Shown piece by piece: positions 8,368 to 41,492 of a stretch of DNA of 64,000 nucleotides. The stretch's first letter is position 1. Each line of letters opens with the position of its first letter. The translations under genes and the position numbers were made by a program. Under the pieces are notes generated by a model, which saw only the letters and a program-made list of their open reading frames with translations, made no database searches and had not been told where the DNA came from. The DNA comes from Planctomycetota bacterium (GTDB taxonomy: Bacteria; Planctomycetota; UBA1135; UBA2386), in contig OZ245006.1 in NCBI GenBank assembly GCA_965223545.1, positions 5,568,001 to 5,632,000 of the forward strand. Reading direction: 5' to 3'.

Positions 8368-10113
8368 ATGTCCGCCCACCTGTGTCCCTGGTTCCGGGCC
8401 CTGGTCGTTTTCGTCGCCGCCGCCGCCGCGCCGGTCGCGCCCGCGCAACCCGGGCGCGCCGACGGAGGGCAGCGGACCAGGGAGGCGCCGATGATGACCG
8501 GCGCGGCGCGCACCGGGATGCGCACCACCCCAGTTTGGACCGTTGGCGAAGAGCACCGCGGCCGCGACGTCAACCTGCGGCGTTACGGCCACCGCTACGT
8601 CGGCAAGCCCGATGGAATCGGCGCCTTCGCGGTCGATGCGCGCACGGTGCGCGTGCTGAGCACTCACGAGCTCTTGGACGGAACGGGGTACCCCTACACC
8701 CTGGCCAACGGGGTGCAGCTGCGCGGTGCGCGCATCAGCTTCACCGACGTCCATCGCCGCACGCGCAAGGCGCGCGCCGGCGGCATGGCCTACCACACCA
8801 TCTACGACCGAGCCGGCGCCCCGGTGACCGATCCAGCGCAGCTGCACGAGGGGTGGAGCGCGTTCGTCGACGGCGGTCTCGATCGCCTGTGCTCCGCGGT
8901 TTGGCGCGCGGCGGGCGTCCACGGCCTGCGCGACGACGTGTTCTTCGCCGGTGAGGAGGCGGCGGAGTTCGGTCTGACTCCGGCGCAGGGCCATGGCGGT
9001 CAGCTGTTCGCCCTCGACCCGCGCGCCGGTGTCCTGTACGCGGCGCCGATGCTCGGTCGCGCGGCGTTCGAGAACGTCGCGCTGCTCGCGAACCACGGCA
9101 CCGACAAGGTGGTGGTCGCCATCGCCGATGACCGCGCTGCCGCGCCGCTCTATCTGTACGTGGGTGAGCGCGACGCCGCGCCTGCCGGCAGCTACTCACC
9201 GCCCAGCTTTCTGCGTCGCAACGGCCTGGGGATGGGGCGCCTGTTCGTGTGGGTGGCGGACAACGGCGCGGTCACGCCGGAGATGTTCAACGGCACCGGC
9301 GCCGCGGTGAACGGCCGGTTCGTGCCGGTGCGCGGCTTCGACCCCGTGTTCGCCGGGGCGCCGGGATACGACGGGCTGGGGTTCGCCTCGATGGCGGCGC
9401 TGGATGCGCAGGCGACCGCCGCCGGCGCGTTTCGCTTCTCGCGGCCGGAGGACATCGCCACGGATCCCGCCGACGGCACGCGGGCGGTGTTCGCGTCGAC
9501 CGGCAACGGCGCGTTGTTCCCGGCCGACAACTGGGGGACCACCTACATCGTCGATCTCGACGACCGCTCGCTGCGCAGCAGCTTGCGGCTGCCGTTGGCG
9601 CAGATCGGCGCGCTCGGCGCCCGCTTGTCGATCCTCTACGACGGCGACGACGCGGGCGGCGGGCAGTTCGTCCACCCCGATGCCGGGCTGCGCAGTCCGG
9701 ACAATCTCGACTGGGCCGCGGATGGGGCGGTCTACGTGCAGGAGGATCGGGCGACGGCGCCGCGCACGCTGTTCGGCAGCGTCAGCGGGGTCGAGGCGTC
9801 GCTCTGGCGGTTGGACCCCATCACCGGCGCCGCGGTGCGGGTCGCGGTCGTCGACCGCGCCGCCGTGCCGACCGGGCAGACCGACCAGTTCGCCGGCGTG
9901 CTGGGCACGTGGGAATCGACGGGAGTCGTGGATGTCGGCCACTTGTTCACCACCGCCCCCGGGGAGCGGCTGCTCCTGTTGCATGTCCAGGCGCACGGCC
10001 TGACCAGTCCGGCGGGCGTCGGGTTGGCGCGGGGCGGAGTACAGGCCACGGATCTGTTCGGCGGTGGCCAGCTCTTGTTCGCCTCCAGCAGTCGCGGCGC
10101 GGGGCGTCGATGA
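8368..10113 (+). CDS. Alkaline phosphatase PhoX / DUF839 family protein
   Basis: PDGIGAF, THEL, RLCS, GEE, LGRAAFEN, RPED, SPDNL, QED, WESTG, VQAH motifs; signal peptide. Confidence 0.8.
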   Translation: MSAHLCPWFRALVVFVAAAAAPVAPAQPGRADGGQRTREAPMMTGAARTGMRTTPVWTVGEEHRGRDVNLRRYGHRYVGKPDGIGAFAVDARTVRVLSTHELLDGTGYPYTLANGVQLRGARISFTDVHRRTRKARAGGMAYHTIYDRAGAPVTDPAQLHEGWSAFVDGGLDRLCSAVWRAAGVHGLRDDVFFAGEEAAEFGLTPAQGHGGQLFALDPRAGVLYAAPMLGRAAFENVALLANHGTDKVVVAIADDRAAAPLYLYVGERDAAPAGSYSPPSFLRRNGLGMGRLFVWVADNGAVTPEMFNGTGAAVNGRFVPVRGFDPVFAGAPGYDGLGFASMAALDAQATAAGAFRFSRPEDIATDPADGTRAVFASTGNGALFPADNWGTTYIVDLDDRSLRSSLRLPLAQIGALGARLSILYDGDDAGGGQFVHPDAGLRSPDNLDWAADGAVYVQEDRATAPRTLFGSVSGVEASLWRLDPITGAAVRVAVVDRAAVPTGQTDQFAGVLGTWESTGVVDVGHLFTTAPGERLLLLHVQAHGLTSPAGVGLARGGVQATDLFGGGQLLFASSSRGAGRR

Positions 10114-11762
10114 GCCTCCGGCGCCACGAATCGTCGAGCGGCGACAACATTCTCGAGGCGTCGTCGCCGCCTTGGCAGCGACGCTGCCGCGCCGGAGGCT
10201 CGGAGAGACAGTGCCTCCGGGCTCAGCGCGGCGGCGGATGTGTCGGGCCTTCCAAGCCGCTCCGGCAAAAGCGGCATCCGAGTTTGGTTGCGGCCGTGGC
10301 CGCGCTGAGCCTCCGGCGCCACGAATCGTCGAGCGGCGACAACATTCTCGAGGCGTCGTCGCCGCCTTGGCAACGTCGCCGCCGCGCCGGAGGCTCGGAG
10401 AGACAGTGCCTCCGGGCTCAGCGCGGCGGCGGATGTGTCAGGCCTTCCAAGCCGCTCCGGAAAAAGCGGCATCCGAGTTTGGTTGCGGCCGTGGCCGCGC
10501 TGAGCCTCCGGCGCCACGAATCGTCGAGCGGCGACAACATTCTCGAGGCGTCGTCGCCGCCTTGGCAACGTCGCCGCCGCGCCGGAGGCTCGGAGAGACA
10601 GTGCCTCCTGGCTCAGTGCGGCGGCGGATGTGTCGGGCCTTCCAAGCCGCTCCGGCAAAAGCGGCATCCGAGTTTGGTTGCGGCCGTGGCCGCGCTGAGC
10701 CTCCGGCGGCGGGGCGAGACCCCGGGGCGGTGGCCCCTGCTGTTGGCCGGCGCGCTGATCCTGCCGTGGTGGCTGTCGCCGGGATCGGTGGCGGCGGCTG
10801 GCGAGCGCGTGCGCGGAGTGACGATCTCGACGCACGGCAGCGGCCGCGACTGGGGCCACGACGTGATCGTGCCGACGATCGCCGAGATCCGGTCGATCGG
10901 CGCCGGCTGGGTCGCCACCCATCCGTACGCGCGGATCGGCGCGGATGGGAGTGTGCGTTTTGCCGACTTCGCCGACGGCGAGCCACCGGAGTACCTGGTG
11001 CGGCCGATCCGCGAAGCCCACGCGCAGGGGATGAAGATCTTGATCAAGCCGCACCTGGCCTACTGGGGGTCGCCGTTCGCGTGGCGGGGTGAGATCGAGT
11101 TCGACGCCGAGCAGGCCTGGCAGCGGTTCTTCGCCGACTACGAGCGCTGGATCGTCAAGCTGGCGCGCGCCTGTCGCGCGGCCGACGCGTTTGCGGTCGG
11201 CACCGAGCTCGATCGCACCGTGCATCGCGAGGCCCGCTGGCGCGCGATCATCGACCGAGTGCGCGCGGCGACGCCGGCGCCGCTGACCTACGCGGCAAAC
11301 TGGACCGACTACCGGCGGGTGCCGTTCTGGGACGCGGTCGACGCGATCGGCATCCAGGCCTACTTTCCGCTGGCCGAGCGGGCCGCGCCCTCGCGCCAGC
11401 AGCTGCGCGATGGCTGGGCCCGGCTGATGACCGGACTGCGCGCCTACTCCGTCGCGCGCGGCCGCCACATCGTGTTCACCGAGCTCGGCTACAACCGGTC
11501 GCACCAGGCACCGGTGCGGCCCTGGGAGGCGCATTCCGACGGCGCCGACGCAGAGGCGATCCAGCTCGCGTGTTTGGCGACTGCGCTGGAGGCGATCGAG
11601 CGCGAGCCGCGCGTCGTCGGTGCGTTCTTGTGGAAGTGGTTCCCCGGCGAATACGGCCGGCGCGGTAACTTCCGCGTCGACGCGCCCGCGGTGCGCGCCC
11701 TCATCGCGCGCCACTGGCGGCCGCTGCAGCGTGCCCGGGTCAGCCCTCGATCAGACCGATGA
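10110..11762 (+). CDS. Glycoside hydrolase family 113-like (GTA TIM-barrel) protein; the first 195 codons are the repeat array
   Basis: ILIKPHL, FAVGTEL, LTYAANW, DAIGIQAYFPL, IVFTELGY; ATG overlaps the phoX stop (ATGA); signal peptide follows the array. Confidence 0.8.
   Translation: MSLRRHESSSGDNILEASSPPWQRRCRAGGSERQCLRAQRGGGCVGPSKPLRQKRHPSLVAAVAALSLRRHESSSGDNILEASSPPWQRRRRAGGSERQCLRAQRGGGCVRPSKPLRKKRHPSLVAAVAALSLRRHESSSGDNILEASSPPWQRRRRAGGSERQCLLAQCGGGCVGPSKPLRQKRHPSLVAAVAALSLRRRGETPGRWPLLLAGALILPWWLSPGSVAAAGERVRGVTISTHGSGRDWGHDVIVPTIAEIRSIGAGWVATHPYARIGADGSVRFADFADGEPPEYLVRPIREAHAQGMKILIKPHLAYWGSPFAWRGEIEFDAEQAWQRFFADYERWIVKLARACRAADAFAVGTELDRTVHREARWRAIIDRVRAATPAPLTYAANWTDYRRVPFWDAVDAIGIQAYFPLAERAAPSRQQLRDGWARLMTGLRAYSVARGRHIVFTELGYNRSHQAPVRPWEAHSDGADAEAIQLACLATALEAIEREPRVVGAFLWKWFPGEYGRRGNFRVDAPAVRALIARHWRPLQRARVSPRSDR
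10111..10707. repeat. Tandem array of three 195-bp palindromic units plus a partial unit (family A)
   Basis: Units start TGAGCCTCCGGCG at 10111, 10306, 10501 and 10696 and are nearly identical; internal inverted repeats; each ends TTTGGTTGCGGCCGTGGCCGCGC. Confidence 0.97.
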
Positions 11763-20190: not shown

Positions 20191-23100
20191 ATGATGTTGG
20201 GCATTCCGTCACCTGATGTACTGGTCAGCTTGGCGGCCAGCGTGGCGCAAGGGGCTGCGCTGGTCGCGGTGATTGCCGGCCGAGTGCTGCTGGGGCGCCG
20301 CGAGAGCGCGTCCGACGACGACCCCGAGGCGGGCAAGGGCGGTGCCAGGCTCGCCGCTTGGGGCTTCGGCATCGCGTTCGCGGCGACCGCCGTCGGCTTC
20401 GTCGTCTACCACTCGAGCGTGGTCGACGCCCGCCAGCGCAGGCTGTCCACCAACCTGTACCGCAGCTCGACCGAAGCGGGGGTGGCGGTGGGCGATACGT
20501 CGCTCAAGACGCTCGGTTTCAGCGCCCAGAACGCCCATCCACGCGGCTTCGACAGCCAAGATCTCGCTGCGCGACTGGCCAGTGGAACCCCTCCGCCCCT
20601 CTTCGACGTGCGGGAGCCCGAGGAGACCGAGGCCGGCGTCATCGCCGGCAGTGTTCACCACCGCTACCCGGATCTGTTGCGCGACCGCTCGGTGCTGACG
20701 GCCGCGGCGGGCACTCCGGTCTTGGTGTGCTACTCCGGCAACCGCAGCTCCGAGCTCGCCGACACGTTTGCCGAACAGGGCATCGAGTGCCGCTTCTTGA
20801 TCGGCGGCTACGAGAAGTGGTTGGCCGAGGGGCGGCCGCTGGTGGGCGGGGTCGAGCGCAGCAGCCTGCGCGCGCTGCCGGAGTTCCCCAACCGGGACAC
20901 GTTGCTCGATACCCCCGAGGTGCAAGAGCTCGCCGAAGCGGGCGACCTGGTCCTCGTCGATGTGCGCTACCCGGAGGACCTGCGCGCGCACGCGCTGCCC
21001 GGCGTGCACAACATCACCCTCCGGCGGCTGACCACGCCCGAGGTGGAGACCGCGCTCCGCGGCCTGCCCGAAGGGCCCGTGGTCGCCGTTTGCTACGACA
21101 AGCGCGGTTCGTTCTACGGCCAGATCCTCGGCCTGCGCATGCACCGCATGGGGCGTGACTTCCGCGGTCGCTACACGGTGCCGCACGAGTACTGGCGACC
21201 GGTCGCCGCGCGGGCGCACGTCGCCGCTTGGCAGGAGGCGCAGCGGGCGCGGAGCTTGCTCGATCTGGTGCGCGAGCCGTTGGCGGCAGCGCTGACCTGG
21301 CTGCGCGATTGGCTGCCGGCCGCGTCGCTGGTCGGCGCGATCGCGTTGCTCGTGCTCGCGCTGCGGCTGGTCATGTTGCCGTTGACCTGGAAGGCGGACG
21401 TCGATCAGCGGGTGCGGGAGGACTTGGCGCCGCGCCTGGCCGCGCTGCGGGCGCGGCTGGCCGACGAGCCGGCGCGGCGCACCCGCGCGCTGCTGGCGGC
21501 CCAGCGCGACGCCGGCCTGACCCCGTTGCGCAACTTCTTGGGCACGTTGGCCATCGTCGTGCTGTTCTTGGTCATGTTCGGCGTCGTCGACGCCGAGGCG
21601 GCGGCGCGCCCGGACGGGTTTGCCTGGATGGCGGATTTGCGACAGCCCGACCCGTGGCTCGCGGTCGTGGTCGGCGGGCTGAGCGCGGCGGTGCTCGCAG
21701 TGAAGATGCGGTTCCGCAGGCCGTGGATCGGCGTCCTCGTCGGCGCGGCCTTCTGTGCGTTGTTGGTGTGGATCTGCCTGCAGTGCAGCGCGGCGGTCAG
21801 CATCTACCTGATCATCAACTTGGCGTTGGTGCTGCTACTGGAGGGCGCGGTTCGGTGGTGGTGGCGGCGGCGCCATCCGCCGCGCCCCGCGGTGCGCGCG
21901 GCAGTCGAGCTGCCGGCCAATGGCCTGTTGCCGCTGCGGGACGCCGCCGCGCTCGGCGCCGCCGGCGGCAAGGCGCGGCGGTTGGGTGAGCTCGTCCAAC
22001 TCGGGCTGCCGGTGCCCGACGGCTTCGTGCTGCTGGACGATGCGGCGGGGGCGGACGAAGTGCTCGCCGCGTTCGACCGGCTCGGCTGCGACGAGGTCGC
22101 GGTGCGCAGCTCCGGCGTCGACGAGGACGGCGCCGAACACAGCTTTGCCGGCGTGTTCGACACCGAGCTGCACGTCGGCCGCGCGCAGCTGCTGGCCGCC
22201 GTCGAGCGAGTGCGCGGCTCCGCGATGTCGGCGCGGGCGACCGCGTACGCCGGGCAGCAGACGGCGGCGATTCCGGTGCTCGTGCAGGCGATGGTGCCCG
22301 CCGAGCGGGCCGGCGTGCTCTTCACCGAGGACCCGACCTGTACGGGACTGGCCTGTGTCGAGATGATCGACGGCGTCGGCGAGGATCTGGTCAGTGGCCG
22401 TAGGACGCCCAAGACGCTGCGCTTCGGTCGGCTGAGCGGGCGTTGCCTCGACGGGGCGCCGCCGATGGATCTGGGTCCACTGTTGGCGTTGGGGGCGCGG
22501 CTCGAACGGCACTTCGGCGGCCCGCAGGACGTCGAGTGGGCTTGGGTTGGCGGCGAGTACCGGCTGCTGCAGGCGAGGGACATCACCGTGCGCGCCACGG
22601 GGGCGGATTCGCCGGCCGCGCGCCTCGAAGGCGAGCGCCGCCGGTTGATGGACCGTTGGCTCGATGACCGGCGAGAGCCGGATGCGGCGCTGCTCGAGCA
22701 GGACGAGCTGGCCGAGCTGCTGCCCCGACCGACCGCCTACAGTGCCGAGCTGATGGAGGCGCTGTGGGCGGTGGACGGCAGCGTCGATCGCGCCGGCCGG
22801 GCGCTGGGGGTTCCGTACGAAGTGCGCGAGGACAGCCCGAGCTACACCGTGACCGCGTTCGGCCGCACCTTCGTCGACGTGGCTGAGCGCGAGCGCCGGC
22901 GGGGCGCCGGCTTGCCCGCGCGCACCGCCTTCCGGCTCACGCTGCGGCTCGAGCGTCTCGAGCGGAGTGCGCGCGGCTGGCTCGGCCGCTTCGAGCAGGC
23001 CGCCGTGCGGCGGGCAGCGATCGATGCCGGCCGGTTGCCGCTCGCCGAACTGCTGTCGATGCTGAGCGAGACGAGAGCTCGGTTCGTGGCCGAGTCGTAT

Positions 23101-24462
23101 GCGCGGGCGGAGCAGATCAACATCTTGGCCGATGCGGCGGTGCGCCAGGCCCGCACCCGACTGGGCCGCGCCGGTCTCGATGCGGCCGAGCACCTCGGTG
23201 CCCCCGTGGAGCACACCGTGGTGCACCGCGCGTGGCAGCGGCTCGGCGATCGGGACTGCTCGGTCGAGGACGCGGTCGCTGGCTTTCTGGCGGAGTTCGC
23301 GCACCGCGCGCCGCACGATTTCGAGCTGTCGGCCCCGCGCTACGGCGAGCAGCCGGAGCGCATGGCGCGCTACGTCGAGCGGTTGCGGCGGGTCAAGGAG
23401 GATGCCGGCGCTCCCGTCGATGTCCCCGCCGATGTCCCCGCCGATGCCGGTGGCGGGTCGGCGGGCACCAGTGATGCCGAACGCGTCCGCCTGCCGCGCA
23501 CAGCCGCGCTCTGTGTCGAGCGCGCACAGCGCTGGCAGGAGCTCAAGGAGGCCGCGAAGCACGCGTGCCTGCGCGAGGTCTCGCTGTTGCGGTCGCTGCT
23601 CTTGGAGCTTGGCGAGCGCACCGGCTTGCAAGAAGCGGTCTTCGACCTGCGCAGCGACGAGCTCGCGCGGCTCGATGACCCAGCCGCGGTCGCCGACCTC
23701 CTGCGCGAGGCGCAGCAGCGGGCCGCGGCCCGGCGGGAGTGGGCCGCGCTCGAGCTGCCCCCCGTCATCACCGCGGCCGAGCTCGAGGTCGTGGGCTCAC
23801 CACTCGCGGCGGCGGCGCCGTCGGCCGAGCGGGACGGCGCGCTGGCCGGGGCGCGGGTCGCGGGCAGCGGCGATGTCGTCGGCACGGTGCGCTGCATGGC
23901 GGAGGGCGATCCACACGACGCGCTGCGGCCGGGCGAGATCCTCGTCACTCGGTGTACGGATCCGGAGTGGAGCCCGTTGTTCGCCGTCGCCGGTGGCATC
24001 GTCACCGAGATCGGCGGCTGGCTGAGCCACGCCGCGATCTTGGCGCGCGAGTGCGGGCTGCCGGCGATCGTCGGTGCCGTCGGCGCCAGCCAGCGGCTGC
24101 GCACCGGTGATGTCGTCCGGCTCGGCATCGATGGTGGGATCGAGGTCCTGCAGGAACGCCGCGCGGCACCGCGGGTGGCGGTCGACGAAAAGGTCTGGCT
24201 GCGCTGGGCTGGCGGCGCGCGCGTCGGCGCCCGCCTGCTCAACGCGAGCCGCGCAGGGCTGCGCGTGCGCGTGCCCAAGGGCGCGCCGCCGTTGGGTGCC
24301 GAGGTCGTCGTCGACTGGGGTGCCGCCGACGGCCTGCGCGGGCAGGTCGCTTCCAACGGAGTCTGTGACGAGGCGGGTTTGGCCATCGAGCCCTGCGCGG
24401 CGCTGGAGCGACAGCTCGACCGGTCACGGCGTTTGGCGGAGGCCCGGCGCCGCGGCGGTTGA
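20191..24462 (+). CDS. Multidomain fusion: TM + two rhodanese domains + YidC/Oxa1-like membrane domain + PEP/pyruvate-binding ATP-grasp + phospho-His swivel + PilZ
   Basis: FDVREPEE..CYSGNRS; LVDVR..CYDKRGS; AIALLVLALRLVMLPL..FAWMADLRQPDP; GGKA..VAVRSS..ED..SFAG..QDVEWA..LQARDIT; TEIGGWLSHAAILARE; RRAAPR..NASRAG. Confidence 0.85.
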   Translation: MMLGIPSPDVLVSLAASVAQGAALVAVIAGRVLLGRRESASDDDPEAGKGGARLAAWGFGIAFAATAVGFVVYHSSVVDARQRRLSTNLYRSSTEAGVAVGDTSLKTLGFSAQNAHPRGFDSQDLAARLASGTPPPLFDVREPEETEAGVIAGSVHHRYPDLLRDRSVLTAAAGTPVLVCYSGNRSSELADTFAEQGIECRFLIGGYEKWLAEGRPLVGGVERSSLRALPEFPNRDTLLDTPEVQELAEAGDLVLVDVRYPEDLRAHALPGVHNITLRRLTTPEVETALRGLPEGPVVAVCYDKRGSFYGQILGLRMHRMGRDFRGRYTVPHEYWRPVAARAHVAAWQEAQRARSLLDLVREPLAAALTWLRDWLPAASLVGAIALLVLALRLVMLPLTWKADVDQRVREDLAPRLAALRARLADEPARRTRALLAAQRDAGLTPLRNFLGTLAIVVLFLVMFGVVDAEAAARPDGFAWMADLRQPDPWLAVVVGGLSAAVLAVKMRFRRPWIGVLVGAAFCALLVWICLQCSAAVSIYLIINLALVLLLEGAVRWWWRRRHPPRPAVRAAVELPANGLLPLRDAAALGAAGGKARRLGELVQLGLPVPDGFVLLDDAAGADEVLAAFDRLGCDEVAVRSSGVDEDGAEHSFAGVFDTELHVGRAQLLAAVERVRGSAMSARATAYAGQQTAAIPVLVQAMVPAERAGVLFTEDPTCTGLACVEMIDGVGEDLVSGRRTPKTLRFGRLSGRCLDGAPPMDLGPLLALGARLERHFGGPQDVEWAWVGGEYRLLQARDITVRATGADSPAARLEGERRRLMDRWLDDRREPDAALLEQDELAELLPRPTAYSAELMEALWAVDGSVDRAGRALGVPYEVREDSPSYTVTAFGRTFVDVAERERRRGAGLPARTAFRLTLRLERLERSARGWLGRFEQAAVRRAAIDAGRLPLAELLSMLSETRARFVAESYARAEQINILADAAVRQARTRLGRAGLDAAEHLGAPVEHTVVHRAWQRLGDRDCSVEDAVAGFLAEFAHRAPHDFELSAPRYGEQPERMARYVERLRRVKEDAGAPVDVPADVPADAGGGSAGTSDAERVRLPRTAALCVERAQRWQELKEAAKHACLREVSLLRSLLLELGERTGLQEAVFDLRSDELARLDDPAAVADLLREAQQRAAARREWAALELPPVITAAELEVVGSPLAAAAPSAERDGALAGARVAGSGDVVGTVRCMAEGDPHDALRPGEILVTRCTDPEWSPLFAVAGGIVTEIGGWLSHAAILARECGLPAIVGAVGASQRLRTGDVVRLGIDGGIEVLQERRAAPRVAVDEKVWLRWAGGARVGARLLNASRAGLRVRVPKGAPPLGAEVVVDWGAADGLRGQVASNGVCDEAGLAIEPCAALERQLDRSRRLAEARRRGG

Positions 24463-24474
24463 GGGGTTTGGCGG

Positions 24475-25200
24475 CTACCGGCGGCTCTCTCGAGCGAGCC
24501 TCCTCTGCACGGCGCCGCTCTGGAGTTCCCGCAGGGCGTGAGTGCCGATCCACCGGCAAGTCGAGTGCTCGACTTTGGCCAGGCGCTGCGCGGTCTCGAT
24601 CGCGGCGCCGTTGAGCGCGCGGTTGCGCTTGCCGATCGCGCGGAGTGCCATGTTCACCGCCTTCTTGACGAAGTGGCGGTCATCGTGGGCTTCGGCCACG
24701 ATCAACTTCAGGCCATCGCGAAACTGCTTGTCGGGGGCTTCCTTGTCGTGGACGGACAGCGCCCAGAGCAGGGCGAACGCCCCGCGCTTCTTGAACTCGG
24801 GCTTTGCCTTCGCCCATTGCGGCACTCTTCCCCAAGCGTGTGCGGTCCGGTCGAACAACTGAAAGCACAGCGTGTCGACCAGCGCCCAGTTGTCGCAGGC
24901 GGAGATCCACGCGTTCATCTGGCCGACGGTCACCTGCACGGGTTCGTCGACCAGCGTCGCGAGCAACCTCGCTTCGTAGCGTCCGGTGGCCCAGAGCTCT
25001 TGGCCAAGCTCGTGGCTCTTCCCGATCTCTTTGGCGTACTTCCTGAGATCACCCATGGACACCCCGAACGGCCGGGTGGCGGTGATGCCGTAGCGGTCGA
25101 GTTCTTTGGCTTGCTGCTTCGTGCCACGTCGCTCGAGCCAACCGAGCGCCTCTTTGACGGTGACCGTGGCGGTCGCGCTACCTTTCCTTCGAGTGCTCAT
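24475..25200 (-). CDS. DNA alkylation repair protein (AlkD-like)
   Basis: GVSMGDLRKYAKEI, ELWATGRYEARLLA, DNWALVD, DDRHFVKKAVNMALRAIGKRN. Confidence 0.9.
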   Translation of the reverse strand: MSTRRKGSATATVTVKEALGWLERRGTKQQAKELDRYGITATRPFGVSMGDLRKYAKEIGKSHELGQELWATGRYEARLLATLVDEPVQVTVGQMNAWISACDNWALVDTLCFQLFDRTAHAWGRVPQWAKAKPEFKKRGAFALLWALSVHDKEAPDKQFRDGLKLIVAEAHDDRHFVKKAVNMALRAIGKRNRALNGAAIETAQRLAKVEHSTCRWIGTHALRELQSGAVQRRLARESRR

Positions 25201-25714
25201 GGCTTCGGCGGCCCGGTTTTAGTCGTTTCTTTGGCTGTTCGACAACGTTCGAGCACCGCTGCTTGCCGCTCGGCGGCGCTTCGCCGATCATCGCCGCCCG
25301 TCGCTCTGCGTCGCGATGAGCCTCAGGGTCCGCAAATCTTCGCGCGGCGACAACCTTTCGAAAGGCTCGATGCCGCTGAAACTTCGACAACGCAGCTCCC
25401 GGAGGCTCGAAGACAACACTGGCCTCCGGGCTCAGCGCGGCCGCCGGCGACCGCGGGACCCACGACCGACGCTCGGGTCGCGGAATGCTCCGTGTTTGGT
25501 TGCGGCCTCGGCCGCGCTGAGCCTCAGGGTCCGCAAATCTTCGCGCGGCGACAACCTTTCGGAAGGCTCGATGCCGCTGGAACTTCGACAACGCAGCTCC
25601 CGGAGGCTCAAAGACAACACTGGCCTCTGCGCTCAGCGCGGCCGCCCGGGACCGCTAGAATCGCGGGCTCCGCTACTGTCGCGGCGCGCTCGGCCTTTGA
25701 TATCTCCTAAGTCA

Positions 25715-25720
25715 TGTCAA
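25715..25720 (-). promoter_or_regulatory. Outward-facing -35 box TTGACA in the IS right end; pairs with TATGTG (27632-27637) across the predicted circle junction
   Basis: Predicted junction TTGACA-TGACTTAGGAGAT-ACGG-TATGTG gives a 17-bp spacer; junction promoters are known for IS110. Confidence 0.6.
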
Positions 25721-25762
25721 GGGGTTTTCGCTGGGGCTCGACATCGCGTGTGCACGGCTTGT

Positions 25763-27265
25763 TCAGGACTCTTCCACAAGACCAGGGAAGTGTTCTTGCA
25801 TGAGATCACCGATCGGGTGAGGTTGACGTGGGGATTCCACGGCCAGGCCTGTGGCGTCCATTGGGCGGCCACTCAAGTCCCTCGTCGTCGGAGTCCCCAC
25901 TCGTCCCTGTCGCCGTTGGTCGCGCTCATGCCGCTGTGGCGCGACGATGCTGCGCGTGAACTTGGCTGCGATGAGCGCGCGCGCGGCAACCTTCGTGAGC
26001 TCGTTGCCGTCGGCGTCTCGCAGGACGTAGCGGACTTGCGTCGACGCCGGCTTGTCATCGGCGCGCTGGCTGTCGCGACGCTTCAGGAGGGCGTAGACGC
26101 GGCGCGCCATCTTGCCAGCCAATGCGATGAGGATGAGGTTGTGGTGATCACCTGCGGCGTAGCGGCGAGCGTAGTACGCCGCGAAATCCGGATCCCACTG
26201 GCGAGCGACGTCAGCTGCTAGGTAGAGGTACTTCTTGAGTACTCGTTGGCCGGTTTTGGTGATTGGCATCGAGGGGTCGCTCATGCCCGTCTGCTTCCGG
26301 CGTGGACACAGTCCGCAGTAGCTCACGAACTTCTTGCCGTTCGAGAACCGCGCGATGTCGCCTACCAAGGCTTCGATGGCCGCAGCGATCGTGGGACCGA
26401 CGCCGCGCAGTTGCTCGAGTGTTCGGTCAGGATCGACGCCCAGGTAGAGCTTCTTGATCTTTGCGTCGAGCTTGCGAACGTCCGTGTTCTTGCGCTCGAT
26501 CTCATCCAGCTCGTACACCACATCCTCTTGGATGGCCTCGTAGTCGAACGGCATCTGCCCCGCAGCTCGCAGCTCAGCGTAGTACTCGGCGGCCTGTCGG
26601 CAGGACTCGAGCACGCGGTCGACCAAGCACGGGTCATGCGTTCCCTTGGATCGCTTCGTCAAGAAGCGCTCCAAGCGACTCTTCCCAAGGCCGACCGCTT
26701 TCACCGGATCGACGTAGCGCCGCAGAAACCCCATCTTAGCGGCACTGAACTTCTCTGCCCCCAAGGCCTTCATGAGGCTGGGATTCGCCAGTACCAGTAT
26801 CGCGTGCACACGACGCTTGTGGTCGCTGAGCTCGCGCGCCAACCGCTCACGCCGCTTCACGAGTCGACGGATCGTCGTCTCGTCGGCAGTTGGAACACGC
26901 AGCTGGTGGACGCCCTTTGGATCCATCTGCGGCAGACGCGCAGCGGCCTCGGCGTCTACTACGTCGGTTTTGGTGTGCTTGCTATAGAACTTCCGCAGGT
27001 CGCTCAGCTTCTGTGGTTTGCTCACGTAGATCTGGAACCCTGCGGCGTTCACGTGCGCCGCGATGGGCAGCCACGCCAACCCCGTTGGTTCCATCACGAA
27101 GCTCACCGGACCCTCGGCACCTTCCTGTGCACGGCGCAGCAGAAGGTCAATACCCTCACGGCTGTTCTCGACTGAAAACGGTCTGCCCCGAGACTTCGCA
27201 CCATCCAGAACGACGGCTCGGTGCTTGCTCCTCAAGCCGAGATCCAATCCAACGAATCGATTCAT
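25763..27265 (-). CDS. IS110 DEDD recombinase/transposase
   Basis: GLDLG, VMEPTG, KTDVVDA (DEDD); Tnp20 domain RGVGPTIA..GDIARF..YCGLCP..QTG..ITKTG..IALAGKMAR; GGAGG RBS. Confidence 0.96.
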   Translation of the reverse strand: MNRFVGLDLGLRSKHRAVVLDGAKSRGRPFSVENSREGIDLLLRRAQEGAEGPVSFVMEPTGLAWLPIAAHVNAAGFQIYVSKPQKLSDLRKFYSKHTKTDVVDAEAAARLPQMDPKGVHQLRVPTADETTIRRLVKRRERLARELSDHKRRVHAILVLANPSLMKALGAEKFSAAKMGFLRRYVDPVKAVGLGKSRLERFLTKRSKGTHDPCLVDRVLESCRQAAEYYAELRAAGQMPFDYEAIQEDVVYELDEIERKNTDVRKLDAKIKKLYLGVDPDRTLEQLRGVGPTIAAAIEALVGDIARFSNGKKFVSYCGLCPRRKQTGMSDPSMPITKTGQRVLKKYLYLAADVARQWDPDFAAYYARRYAAGDHHNLILIALAGKMARRVYALLKRRDSQRADDKPASTQVRYVLRDADGNELTKVAARALIAAKFTRSIVAPQRHERDQRRQGRVGTPTTRDLSGRPMDATGLAVESPRQPHPIGDLMQEHFPGLVEES

Positions 27266-27289
27266 GTCCCCTCCATGTTCAACGAGTGA

Positions 27290-27625
27290 GTGTCGACGAG
27301 AGGACTCTCCCTACCCGCGCAGTCCGCCTGAGGAGGCGAGTCGCCAAAACGGTTCGTGTTTCGGGGCCGTGATTTCTCACGCCGCCAATCTCCTAAATCG
27401 GGTCCCCCACGCGGGAGGAGAGTCGCAGAACCAAATGAGGGGCCGCTCGAAGCGCCACCATTGCGGCAGATCGCGAAACCTCTCCGTCGCACGCCGGGGG
27501 ACCCTAAGCTCTCTTGCGGCCGATGACCAGACTCCCGACACGACTCCTGCGGCTGCACCATCGCGCGAGTCTTCCACACCGCTACGGCGCGACGGGTGTG
27601 GAGAACTCTAGCTTCGCAGATCATG
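27290..27625 (-). ncRNA. Putative bridge RNA of the IS110 element (ends approximate)
   Basis: Two parallel loops CGAT-[9 nt]-TGG(T/C)GGCG-hairpin-CGGCCCC; one pair of guides matches the element ends, the other matches the insertion-site motif. Confidence 0.8.
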
Positions 27626-27657
27626 GAACCACACATACCGTTGCGGCCCCGGCCGCG

Positions 27658-29058
27658 TTGAGCTCATGGACCAACAACGCCCTCCGGGTGATGGCCGGCG
27701 CGGCTTGCGCGCTGTCGTTTGCCTGCGGGTCCGAGCCCGCGGCGGACCCGGCGCCTCTGCCAGCCGCGCCGGTCACCAACCGGCTCGACGTCTCCTCTGA
27801 CGTCGTCAACAACCTCGGCATCACCTACGAGCCGGCGGCCCGCGGTCACCTCGGTGTGTGGCACCGGGTGTCGGGCGAGCTGGAGGTTCCCGAGAGCCGC
27901 CGTTGGCTGCTGCGGGCGCCGGCGCGCGCGCGCGTGCTCTCGACGGTCGCCCGCTGGCAGGTGGTCGCGCAGGGCGCGGTGGTGGCGACCCTGGCCGCGC
28001 CGGAGGTCGGGCGCGTGCGGGCCGCGATCGAGCTCGCCGAACGGACCGCCGCGCAGGCGACGCGCGAGGTGGCGGCCGCCGGTGCGCGGCTGGTCGAGAG
28101 CGAGGAGCACTTGGCGGAGGCGCGCGCCTTCGAGCGCACCTGCATGGAGCGACTCGACCATCTCGAGCGGGCGGATCGGCAGGGCAACCCGCTGACCGTG
28201 CGGGAGCTGGTCGAGGCCCGCCGCGCGGTCGCCGAGGCCAGTCGGGCGCGCCTCGACGCGGCGATCGTGCGCGACGAGTTGGCGGCGCGGGTCGCCGGCA
28301 AACAGCTCGACGCCGACCGGGCCGCGGGCGACGCCGCCGCACAGCTGCAGGCGCTCGCCGTCCTGACCGGAGCCAGCGTGGCCGATCTGTCGGAGCGCAC
28401 CGAGGGCGAGCCGGCCTGGCGTCGGATCGAGCGCCTCGAGATCCGCGCCCCCGCGGATGGAGTGGTCGTCGAGCTGGCGGTGGCGGCCGGCGAGGTCATC
28501 GACGCCGGGATGCCGGTGGCGCGTCTGTTCGATACCCGCGAGCTGCGCTTCGTCGGCCGCGTGCCCGAGGGCGATCTGGGGCTGTTGGCCGGAGGCAGTA
28601 CCGTGCGTTTGGAGTTTGCCGCCAGCCTGCTGCCGCCGGTCGAGACGGTGCTCGACGCGCCGCTCTTGATCGCCGACCCAGACACCCGAATGGTGCACGT
28701 GCAGGCCGCCGTCGCCAACGGCGATGGGCAGATGGCGCACGGCATGTCCGCCACGGCGCACGTGCTCGTCGAACGCAGCGCGAGTGAAGAAGTGTTGGTC
28801 CCGCAGCGGTGCATCGTCTTCGACGGCCTGCAGGCGGTCGTGTTCAAACGCGATCCCGATGATCCGGACGTCGTCGTGCGCACCCCGGTCGAGCTCGGCG
28901 CGCGCGCGGTCGATCGCGTCGAGGTGCTCGCCGGTGTGATGGAGGGCGATGCGCTGGTCGCCGACGGCATCCGCCAGCTGGTGCGCACCGGATTGGGCAA
29001 GGCGCCGGAGGGCGGCCACTTCCACGCCGACGGCACCTGGCACCGGGACCACGAGTAG
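27658..29058 (+). CDS. RND efflux periplasmic adaptor (CusB/CzcB-like lipoprotein); current start uncertain (TTG 27658, GTG 27688 or ATG 27691)
   Basis: Lipobox LSFAC; IRAPADGVV lipoyl-like motif; His-rich C-terminus GGHFHADGTWHRDHE. Confidence 0.88.
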   Translation: MSSWTNNALRVMAGAACALSFACGSEPAADPAPLPAAPVTNRLDVSSDVVNNLGITYEPAARGHLGVWHRVSGELEVPESRRWLLRAPARARVLSTVARWQVVAQGAVVATLAAPEVGRVRAAIELAERTAAQATREVAAAGARLVESEEHLAEARAFERTCMERLDHLERADRQGNPLTVRELVEARRAVAEASRARLDAAIVRDELAARVAGKQLDADRAAGDAAAQLQALAVLTGASVADLSERTEGEPAWRRIERLEIRAPADGVVVELAVAAGEVIDAGMPVARLFDTRELRFVGRVPEGDLGLLAGGSTVRLEFAASLLPPVETVLDAPLLIADPDTRMVHVQAAVANGDGQMAHGMSATAHVLVERSASEEVLVPQRCIVFDGLQAVVFKRDPDDPDVVVRTPVELGARAVDRVEVLAGVMEGDALVADGIRQLVRTGLGKAPEGGHFHADGTWHRDHE

Positions 29059-39371: not shown

Positions 39372-41399
39372 ATGTCGCCCATGTCCGGACCGGCTGCCGA
39401 GTTCGAGGCCCTGCTGCGGGCGCGCATGAGCCGCCGCGCGTTCGCCGCCGGCCTTGCCGCGGGCGCAGGGCTCGCCCGTGGTCGAGCCTCGCGTGCAGCC
39501 GCCCCTCCGGCACGCCCCCGCGTGAAGTTCCGCGGCCTGGGCGCCGGCATCTCCGCGGACGACCGCGTCGCCGACGGCTACCGCGCCGACGTGTTGATCG
39601 CCTGGGGAGACCCGGTGCTGCCGGGGGCGCCGCCGTTTCGCCCGAGCGCGCTCACCGCCGAGGCGCAGGCCTCGCAGTTCGGCGCCAACGCGGACTACTT
39701 GGCGTTCTTGCCGCTGCCGCGCGGCTCGGTGCGCTCCGATCACGGTCTGCTGTGCGTCAACCACGAGTTCACCAAGGCCGTGGCGATGTTCGACGGCCTC
39801 GGCGACAGCTACCTGAGCGCTCGCGAGCGCTCGACCGCCGCCCAGGCCGCGGTCGAGCTGCAAGCGCACGGCCACAGCGTGTTGGAGATCCGGCGCGACG
39901 CTGCGGGCGCGGTCAGGGTGGTCGACGACAGCGTATTCGCGCGGCGGGTGACCGCGACTACCCCGATCGAGTTGCGGGGCCCGGCGGCGGGCCACGCCCG
40001 ACTGCGGACTGCGGCCGATCCCACTGGTCGGTTGGTGCGCGGCACGTTCGCCGACTGCGCGGGCGGCGTCACTCCGTGGGGCACCGTGCTGATCGCCGAA
40101 GAGAACTTCGACGAGTACTTCTGGGGGGACCCGGAAGCGCTTCCGGGGGCGGACCAACTGCGGCGCTACACCGTCGGCCGCGAGCCGGAGTACGGCTGGG
40201 GGCGGTCGGCTGTCGAGCCCGGTATCGACGCTGTTCTGCGCGACGAGCTGCGGCGGTTCGACCTGCAGCACGAGCCCAACGAGTGCAACCGATTCGGTTG
40301 GGTCGTCGAGCTCGATCCCTACGACCCCGCGTCCCGGCCGGTGAAGCGCACCGCCCTGGGGCGTTTCAAGCACGAGAGTGCGACGGTCGTCGTCAGCGGG
40401 TCGGGCCGCGTGGTCGTGTACTCGGGCGACGATGAGGAGTTCGAGTACCTGTACCGCTACGTCAGTGACGGGACCGTCGACGAGCACGCGGGATTCGACT
40501 CCGACCTCCTCGACCGCGGCGTGCTCAGCGCGGCGCGGTTCGACGCCGACGGAACCCTCACCTGGTTGCCGCTGATCTTCGGTAAGGGTGGTTTGACGCC
40601 CGACAACGGATTCGCCGACCAGGCCGAGGTCTTGCTGTGGGCGCGGCGGGCGGCGGACATCGCCGGCGCGACCCCGCTCGATCGCCCCGAGGATGTCGAG
40701 GTGGACCCGCGGACCGGCGGCGTGCTGGTCGCATTGACCAACAACCTGGCGCGGACGGAAGAGCAGGTCGATGGCGCCAACCCGCGGCCGCGCAACTCCG
40801 CGGGGCACTTGCTCGAGCTGCTGCCGCCGGGCGACACGGACGCGCTCCGCCACGACGCGCCGTCCTTTCGCTGGAACGTCTTCCTACTGGGAGGGGCGGA
40901 CGCCAGGCCAGGCGACGAGGGAGCGGATCGATTGTCGGCTCCGGCCTGGGCGGCCGGGTTGCGCTGTCCCGACAACTTGGCCTTCGATCCGTCCGGCCGA
41001 CTCTGGATCGCGACCGACGGCAGTCCCACCACCTTTGCCGACGACGTACCGCTGGCGCGGCGGATGCCGGATGGTCTGTGGGCGATCGAAGAGGATGCGG
41101 GGGGTGCGCGCCGGCCCCTGCTGTTGTACGCGTGTCCCAACGGTGCCGAGTTGTGTGGGCCGTGCTTCACGCCCGATGGCGAGACGCTGTTCGTCGCCGT
41201 CCAGCACCCAGGCGGCGGCGCGCCGTTCGCGAGGTCGCCGACGCGCTGGCCCGCGGGAAGGCCGGGAGTGCGGCCGCTGCGCGGCGGTCCGCCGCCGCCG
41301 CGCTCCGCGGTGGTCGTGATCGCCAAGCAAAGACCCGATGCGGCCGGCGACAGCGGAGCGGACGACCCCGGCGGGTTCGACCCGCGGATCGGGAGCTGA
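39372..41399 (+). CDS. Tat-exported PhoX-family alkaline phosphatase
   Basis: SRRAF Tat motif; CVNHE, CAGGVTPWGT..EEN, KRTALGRFKHE, DRPED, PDNL, ELCGP.FTPDG.TLFVAVQHP. Confidence 0.92.
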   Translation: MSPMSGPAAEFEALLRARMSRRAFAAGLAAGAGLARGRASRAAAPPARPRVKFRGLGAGISADDRVADGYRADVLIAWGDPVLPGAPPFRPSALTAEAQASQFGANADYLAFLPLPRGSVRSDHGLLCVNHEFTKAVAMFDGLGDSYLSARERSTAAQAAVELQAHGHSVLEIRRDAAGAVRVVDDSVFARRVTATTPIELRGPAAGHARLRTAADPTGRLVRGTFADCAGGVTPWGTVLIAEENFDEYFWGDPEALPGADQLRRYTVGREPEYGWGRSAVEPGIDAVLRDELRRFDLQHEPNECNRFGWVVELDPYDPASRPVKRTALGRFKHESATVVVSGSGRVVVYSGDDEEFEYLYRYVSDGTVDEHAGFDSDLLDRGVLSAARFDADGTLTWLPLIFGKGGLTPDNGFADQAEVLLWARRAADIAGATPLDRPEDVEVDPRTGGVLVALTNNLARTEEQVDGANPRPRNSAGHLLELLPPGDTDALRHDAPSFRWNVFLLGGADARPGDEGADRLSAPAWAAGLRCPDNLAFDPSGRLWIATDGSPTTFADDVPLARRMPDGLWAIEEDAGGARRPLLLYACPNGAELCGPCFTPDGETLFVAVQHPGGGAPFARSPTRWPAGRPGVRPLRGGPPPPRSAVVVIAKQRPDAAGDSGADDPGGFDPRIGS

Positions 41400-41492
41400 G
41401 CCTCCGGCGCCTCGAATCGTCGAGCGGCCATAACATTCTCGAGGCGACGCCGCTGCCATGGCGACAACGCCGCCGCGCTGAGCCTCCGGCGC
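41396..41492. repeat. Single internally deleted copy of repeat family A
   Basis: CTGAGCCTCCGGCGC at 41396 and 41478 (82-bp period); inner GAATCGTCGAGCGGC..AACATTCTCGAGGCG matches the array A unit. Confidence 0.9.

Follow-up and report, generated by a model that had tools for sequence, protein, structure and literature searches.

A 64,000-nucleotide stretch of a Planctomycetota genome (the window; genome G000, main contig 8.07 Mb, 70% guanine plus cytosine [GC], 91% complete) carries an IS110-family element that joins its target through two unlike core dinucleotides. No base is common to both sides of the crossover: the target core is AC and the core at the end of the element is AT, the two being unlike at position 9. 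This departure from the shared-core rule is real and clade-wide, and the targeting of repeats is in itself an ordinary IS110 habit. We think it likely that the element is active and that the two cores need not match; the target AC would stay on the left and the element's AT would travel with the right end, and for that reason identity of the cores would be unnecessary. The element, at 62% GC versus 70% for the genome, and the two halves of its target lie as follows.

25700..27639, minus strand: IS110-family element, 1,940 bp, delimited by 11 identical copies, identical junctions and a census of empty sites
25700-25701, minus strand: terminal AT of the element (donor core), delimited by junctions and the empty-site census
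27640..27663, minus strand: left half of the target, with core AC at 27640-27641 and a GCGGCC/GGCCGC hairpin before the core; end of the repeat array
25695..25699, minus strand: right half of the target, CAAAG

Eleven copies of the element are present in G000, 100% identical across their whole length. Read in gene direction, with a slash at the joint, the left junction is GCCGCA-AC/GGTATG and the right junction GGAGAT-AT/CAAA in 11/11 copies, and all 11 show the specific target, a fixed orientation and no target-site duplication. A census of GCCGCA-NN-CAAA in the same genome returned 109 matches, with AC at the core in 95 and AT in 1, the AT site lying outside repeats; 94 of the 95 AC sites are members of one repeat family, and about one intact 12-mer would be expected by chance. 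Because empty sites keep AC, the element occupies 25700-27639 and its last two bases are AT. Joining 25699 to 27640 leaves 2 mismatches to the previous repeat unit, compared with 3 for the join of 25701 to 27642 (reading TTTGAT-TGCGG) in the original prediction, whose ends were thus 2 bp off. In four contig sets covering 24800-28600, empty units of the repeat family join at 27640 and AC stays with the target; one contig joint skips 1,940 bases, with a one-base uncertainty. The earlier view that there is no identical 2-nucleotide core survives this correction, although its AA/TA pair corresponds to positions 7-8 and the informative pair, AC versus AT, to positions 8-9, while the single base it had seen as shared at the junctions disappears once the ends are corrected.

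The target belongs to a family of palindromic repeats that resemble repetitive extragenic palindromes (REP) and bacterial interspersed mosaic elements (BIME), with three occurrences in the window.

25312..25699, no strand: two 201-bp palindromic units, REP/BIME-like, flanked by a DNA-alkylation-repair gene and a CusB/CusA-like efflux operon
10109..10708, no strand: array A (195-bp unit, 3.1 copies), including three free target motifs
41395..41492, no strand: lone partial unit of the repeat family, without the target motif

The element sits inside the second of the two 201-bp units. As had been read from the window, TTTG recurs at 25495 and 25696, 201 bp apart, four intact motifs are free (10283, 10478, 10673, and 25495), and removal of the element rebuilds the 201-bp unit, restoring the TGAGC spacing (201/201). 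Mapping of all copies, proposed at the time as a check, placed 11/11 at the motif GCCGCA-AC/CAAA and none elsewhere, with 10/11 adjoining a repeat cluster. The repeat family is thus the landing pad, as first proposed. The eleventh copy (C1 5,135,760) lies away from all repeats, at a site that matches the guide and has a hairpin of its own; it is because of this copy that we take the guide, not the repeat as such, to set the target. A hairpin is foldable beside the core in 10/11 occupied sites, the nonrepeat site included. A BLAST search with three units recovered 154 clusters of the family in G000 (32.9 kb), and a looser count gave 120 intact linkers, of which 9 were occupied and 2 scarred. 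The palindromic copies are many and lie in tandem clusters, as expected of REP/BIME sequences, and at the window locus they are intergenic. No gene for a REP-associated tyrosine transposase adjoins the repeats in this 91% complete genome, all 14 PF01797 matches lying at least 4.8 kb from a cluster. ISPpu9 of Pseudomonas putida is reportedly, like ISPpu10, an IS110 element residing in repetitive extragenic palindromes.

Two other explanations of this distribution were considered. The 11 copies could have spread by recombination or gene conversion among repeat units after one imprecise insertion, the asymmetry being a single frozen event. The complete identity of the copies and the placement of most of them in related repeats would suit this, but we judge it very improbable: up to the junction itself the flanks represent different subtypes of the repeat, one copy lies outside any repeat, and the asymmetry recurs with other targets in relatives at 40-55% protein identity. 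Alternatively, the repeat family could derive from the element, through its ends or scars, rather than being a preexisting target. Two linkers do contain 5 bp of the element's left end, but the element is without similarity to the repeat units, and the target motif is common in two genomes of the same family, G010 (44) and G018 (33), in which this query found no close recombinase relative (completeness 69% and 94%); derivation from the element is extremely unlikely.

The noncoding parts of the element comprise 374 bp upstream of its gene and 63 bp downstream, and inspection of the element ends revealed no terminal or subterminal inverted repeats. It has neither the subterminal inverted repeats nor the downstream noncoding region of the IS1111 group, nor the IS621-type arrangement of one core dinucleotide, with T at position 9, at both ends and in the target. 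By its domains, layout, target habit and predicted guide-bearing upstream region, it is classed with the IS110 group. The IS110 transposase recognized in the original prediction was confirmed at its position.

25763..27265, minus strand: 500-amino-acid recombinase with a RuvC-like DEDD domain (D8, E59, D101, D104) and a Tnp domain; Pfam PF01548 and PF02371

The four acidic residues are conserved among relatives. A structure model (mean predicted local distance difference test score, 86) matched IS621 (VIA; Z 25.2, root mean square deviation 3.1 over 305 residues), and alignment to IS621 and ISCro4 places Thr326 against Ser241 of IS621. In 60 sequences the position-326 column holds Ser 44 times and Thr 16 times, whereas the neighboring Ser329 varies. 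The 11 identical copies suggest that the predicted Thr enzyme is active. No Thr nucleophile in an IS110 element is described in the literature searched, mostly open access and limited to main texts. Thr in place of the catalytic Ser is common in this clade, and residue 62 (G63 in IS621) is frequently Ser where the guides of a relative specify T at position 9. Plasmid matches to the recombinase showed about 30% identity, and a search of 40 relatives, 400 genomes of the phylum, and 400 of the order of G434 revealed no second genome with a close multicopy relative.

Upstream of the gene, the left end of the element contains four segments that match the target and the donor.

27290..27520, minus strand: predicted bridge RNA, approximate ends; two guide loops with an internal hairpin in each, scaffold conserved in 48 loci
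27460..27468, minus strand: left target guide, matching target positions 2-8, with U opposite target C9
27428..27436, minus strand: right target guide and handshake bases; the position-9 G pairs with target C
27387..27395, minus strand: left donor guide, matching the element right end with a one-base offset near the core
27347..27355, minus strand: right donor guide and handshake bases; the position-9 G is complementary to the incoming target C but forms no more than a wobble with donor T

We compared 87 loci (the window's own, 7 of 8 from one set of relatives, and 79 from another), of which 48 kept the donor-loop anchor and 39 were dropped. The left junction was placed by an end motif in 38, giving 33 unique guide sets; both ends were available for 25 loci, and 24 passed the cut-site test, including the window and two duplicate pairs. 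Compensatory pairs occur in both internal hairpins in a 16-sequence subset. The predicted RNA matches no Rfam family, and folding the whole left end alone was uninformative (z, -0.79). As judged by eye in alignments, a segment at 27400-27420 of the window can close the target loop by pairing upstream or the donor loop by pairing downstream, and may be a switch.

Left target guides matched target positions 2-7 at 169 of 198 bases when the best of three registers was taken (shuffle mean, 89.5). The right target guide and the right donor guide carry the same base at position 9 in 33/33 unique guide sets, and in 32/33 that base complements the left junction base (G/C 16, A/T 10, C/G 6), compared with a shuffle mean of 12 and maximum of 22, none of 5,000 shuffles reaching 32. 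Position 8 is always U in both right guides. By sequence and covariation, then, the predicted guides match target and donor, in keeping with the original placement of the element within a guided target. They also bear on the model implied by the original ends, in which the element spans 25702-27641, one base is shared, the target carries AT and the circle AC. Such an element would likewise be 1,940 bp long, pairing between its right donor guide and an AC junction would be perfect, and its left target guide ends in U. That U, however, is nearly invariant whatever the target and is for this reason scaffold; the right target guide pairs with AC, not AT; and no repeat linker carries AT (1/109 matches, outside repeats; 0/3 genomes, GGCCGCAATCAAA being found in none of G000, G010, and G018). 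The model is therefore largely refuted and highly unlikely.

Unlike cores extend beyond the window. Among the 24 two-ended loci, 12 differ at position 9, 2 differ at position 8 only, and 10 match; the right core is AT in 18/24, and its first base is A in 24/24. Position-9 guides pair with the left base in 23/24 of these loci and with the right base in 11/24. The mismatch appears in two subclades of a quick tree, whose deepest branches carry matched cores (AT, AG, or GT). Two loci that are 92% identical, L072 and L073, differ at the right core (AC versus AT), and the end base can thus switch to match the target. No naturally unlike cores are described in the literature searched, and boundary tables in supplements could hold cases.

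These data could also arise if the cores matched in the reaction, the circle carrying the left-junction C, and the right junction were later turned to T through repair bias or damage. As this would predict, position 9 of the donor guide follows the base at the left junction, and L072 and L073 differ at the right core despite being 92% identical. Yet AC is found at the right end in 0/11 copies, T stands opposite both C and G targets, which is impossible for one damage chemistry, and top-strand copy-out, described for IS621 and CazIS110, predicts the right-end base in the circle. We consider later conversion improbable; C-to-T damage as the origin of the right-end T was rejected outright, since T ends also occur with G targets.

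If instead the target AC stays on the left and the AT moves with the right end, the element would be copied out as a circle whose junction, predicted to read GAT-AT-GGT and to carry AT rather than AC, would form a promoter from two hexamers at opposite ends of the element.

25715..25720, minus strand: -35 hexamer TTGACA at the element right end; same layout in relatives
27632..27637, minus strand: -10-like hexamer TATGTG at the element left end; TAT conserved in relatives

Across the predicted circle junction the hexamers would be spaced by 17 bp, and no promoter was found in the linear element. Selection for AT because its junction creates an extended -10 TG was considered and rejected, since relatives with GT cores lack that TG. 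From the left end, the bridge RNA would pair with GCCGCA-AC-CAAA, the conserved linker beside a hairpin in the host repeat family. The cut would fall 3' of the core, and the top strand would decide the product. Since the position-9 base is G in both right guides, strand exchange would swap a G:C pair and a G.T wobble between the loops at no net cost, and the bottom strand would be rebuilt or repaired from the top strand, whose base would always win.

Published systems offer precedents for several of these steps. IS621 top strands are cut between positions 9 and 10, each right guide pairs with the incoming core after exchange, and bottom strands are cut elsewhere, with host repair of mismatches proposed (PMC11208158). 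In vitro, IS621 releases a single-stranded circle (10.64898/2026.08.31.748434). CazIS110 is copied out and inserted via the top strand, integration being >1,300-fold more frequent by that strand (10.1101/2025.10.25.684509); CazIS110-1 is, like the present element, a multicopy IS110, and such a pathway would give the asymmetry seen here.

Several observations weigh against the proposal that unlike cores are joined in this way. No circle junction was found in the assembly or in the four contig sets, contigs being prone to drop rare forms, and the contig sets contained no orthologous empty allele that spans unique flanks, two of them (X4 and X6) carrying the same insertion here. Matching cores occur in 10/24 loci. 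The right donor guide suits an AC junction better than AT, in L021, L053, L064, and L066 a guide C faces donor T, which is not a wobble, and near the core the left donor guide is shifted by one base relative to the donor. The relatives are without empty alleles, their junctions having been placed by end motifs, and kin are not independent, such that the shuffle test overstates and the counts are to be read as pattern rather than probability.

A fuller scheme is possible and, in our estimate, doubtful. Here a fixed AT end would be read by the protein, making a shared core unneeded; target base 9 would be free, set by a paired change in both right guides; transfer would involve the top strand only, via a phosphothreonine; DnaA at left-end boxes would license second-strand synthesis or time expression; slippage across the single-stranded insert would leave a 5-bp scar; and the clade would be widespread.

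At C1 611,325 (plus strand) and 537,464 (minus strand), two linkers of different subtypes contain the same 5-bp insert, with the sequence of the element's first five bases (chance expectation, 0.0002). These inserts are probably loss scars, as if the element had dropped out between the TAT triplets that lie at either end of it; they would be explained equally by slippage across a top-strand-only insert and by shifted excision at a matching AT. A lone match to the scar pattern on a viral contig, in an unrelated nonrepeat context, was taken as chance. The putative DnaA sites form one inverted pair.

27570..27605, no strand: inverted pair of DnaA-box-like 9-mers, at 27597-27605 and 27570-27578, with one mismatch each

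Such a pair, about 35 to 70 bases inside the left end, was present in 19/33 unique left ends at ≤1 mismatch and perfect in 6/33 (L036, L038, L042, L074, L075, and L079), versus shuffle means of 0.07 and 0.00, for a motif chosen post hoc. The pair may instead be an RNA stem. Neither DnaA boxes nor such scars are described for IS110 elements in the literature searched.

Among the closest known parallels is IS621 of E. coli (PMC11208160, PMC11208158), which resembles the present element in its DEDD and Tnp domains and fold, in a left-end bridge RNA with four guides and handshake bases, and in its junction promoter layout, REP-type target, and crossover 3' of position 9 (for the present element, predicted from sequence). 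IS621 differs in its shared CT core, as opposed to AC and AT here, in an almost invariant T9 read by a backbone amide (PMC11208158) where the target here has C, in Ser241 instead of Thr326, and in length (about 326 versus 500 amino acids, about 24% identity); the one-base donor guide offset is a feature of the present element. ISPpu10 of Pseudomonas putida (10.64898/2026.03.19.712850) is likewise an IS110 element in repetitive extragenic palindromes, with a hairpin beside the core and guide wobble pairs tolerated; its core is a shared CT, and the repeat here is a unit of 195 to 201 bp. The targeting of repeats by IS110 elements is thus already well known from IS621 and ISPpu10. ISEc21 and the seekRNA account of IS110 elements (PMC11187229) share the upstream noncoding region, ends abutted in a circle (here predicted), and the lack of a target duplication; in that paper, one copy of the apparent duplication belongs inside the insertion sequence, and duplication is not characteristic of the family. 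Its accessible part does not describe a clade with a fixed AT end and a guide-specified target base 9.

Cores have been defined as repeated bases and changed only in matched pairs (Durrant et al.), engineering sites have been filtered for identical donor and target cores (10.1101/2025.05.14.653916), and different cores have been used to block cross-reaction (10.64898/2026.04.29.721476). Bridge recombinase engineering assumes a shared CT or GT core in donor and target. A natural clade inserting precisely with unlike cores, position 9 being C, G, or T, would extend the range of sites that can be addressed and would caution against treating core orthogonality as general. As the cores are unlike, the strand that set the product can be read from each junction, a natural marker for the question of cut-out versus copy-out. 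Programs that call boundaries by taking repeated bases as the core will misplace such elements or overlook them.

Other elements are also of note. The relatives L031, L032, L039, and L044, which come from other metagenomes and share about 55% identity, have almost the same motif beside a hairpin as their target. In G000, a second and unrelated IS110-family element has 4 copies at a different site in the same repeat family (C1 ~614,400, 5,087,200, 6,849,570, and 7,067,780), one lying about 90 bp from a copy of the main element and one interrupted by another element. A third family in G000, with about 23 copies and IS1111-like subterminal inverted repeats, is often in tandem with itself (e.g., C1 5,179,630-5,181,310). 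Within the window, a CusB-like efflux gene (27646-29058) starts about 25 bp from the left end of the element, and the insertion may cut off its upstream region. On the other side, 20191-24462 encodes a 1,423-amino-acid fusion of rhodanese, YidC/60KD_IMP, PPDK_N, and PEP-utilizer domains.

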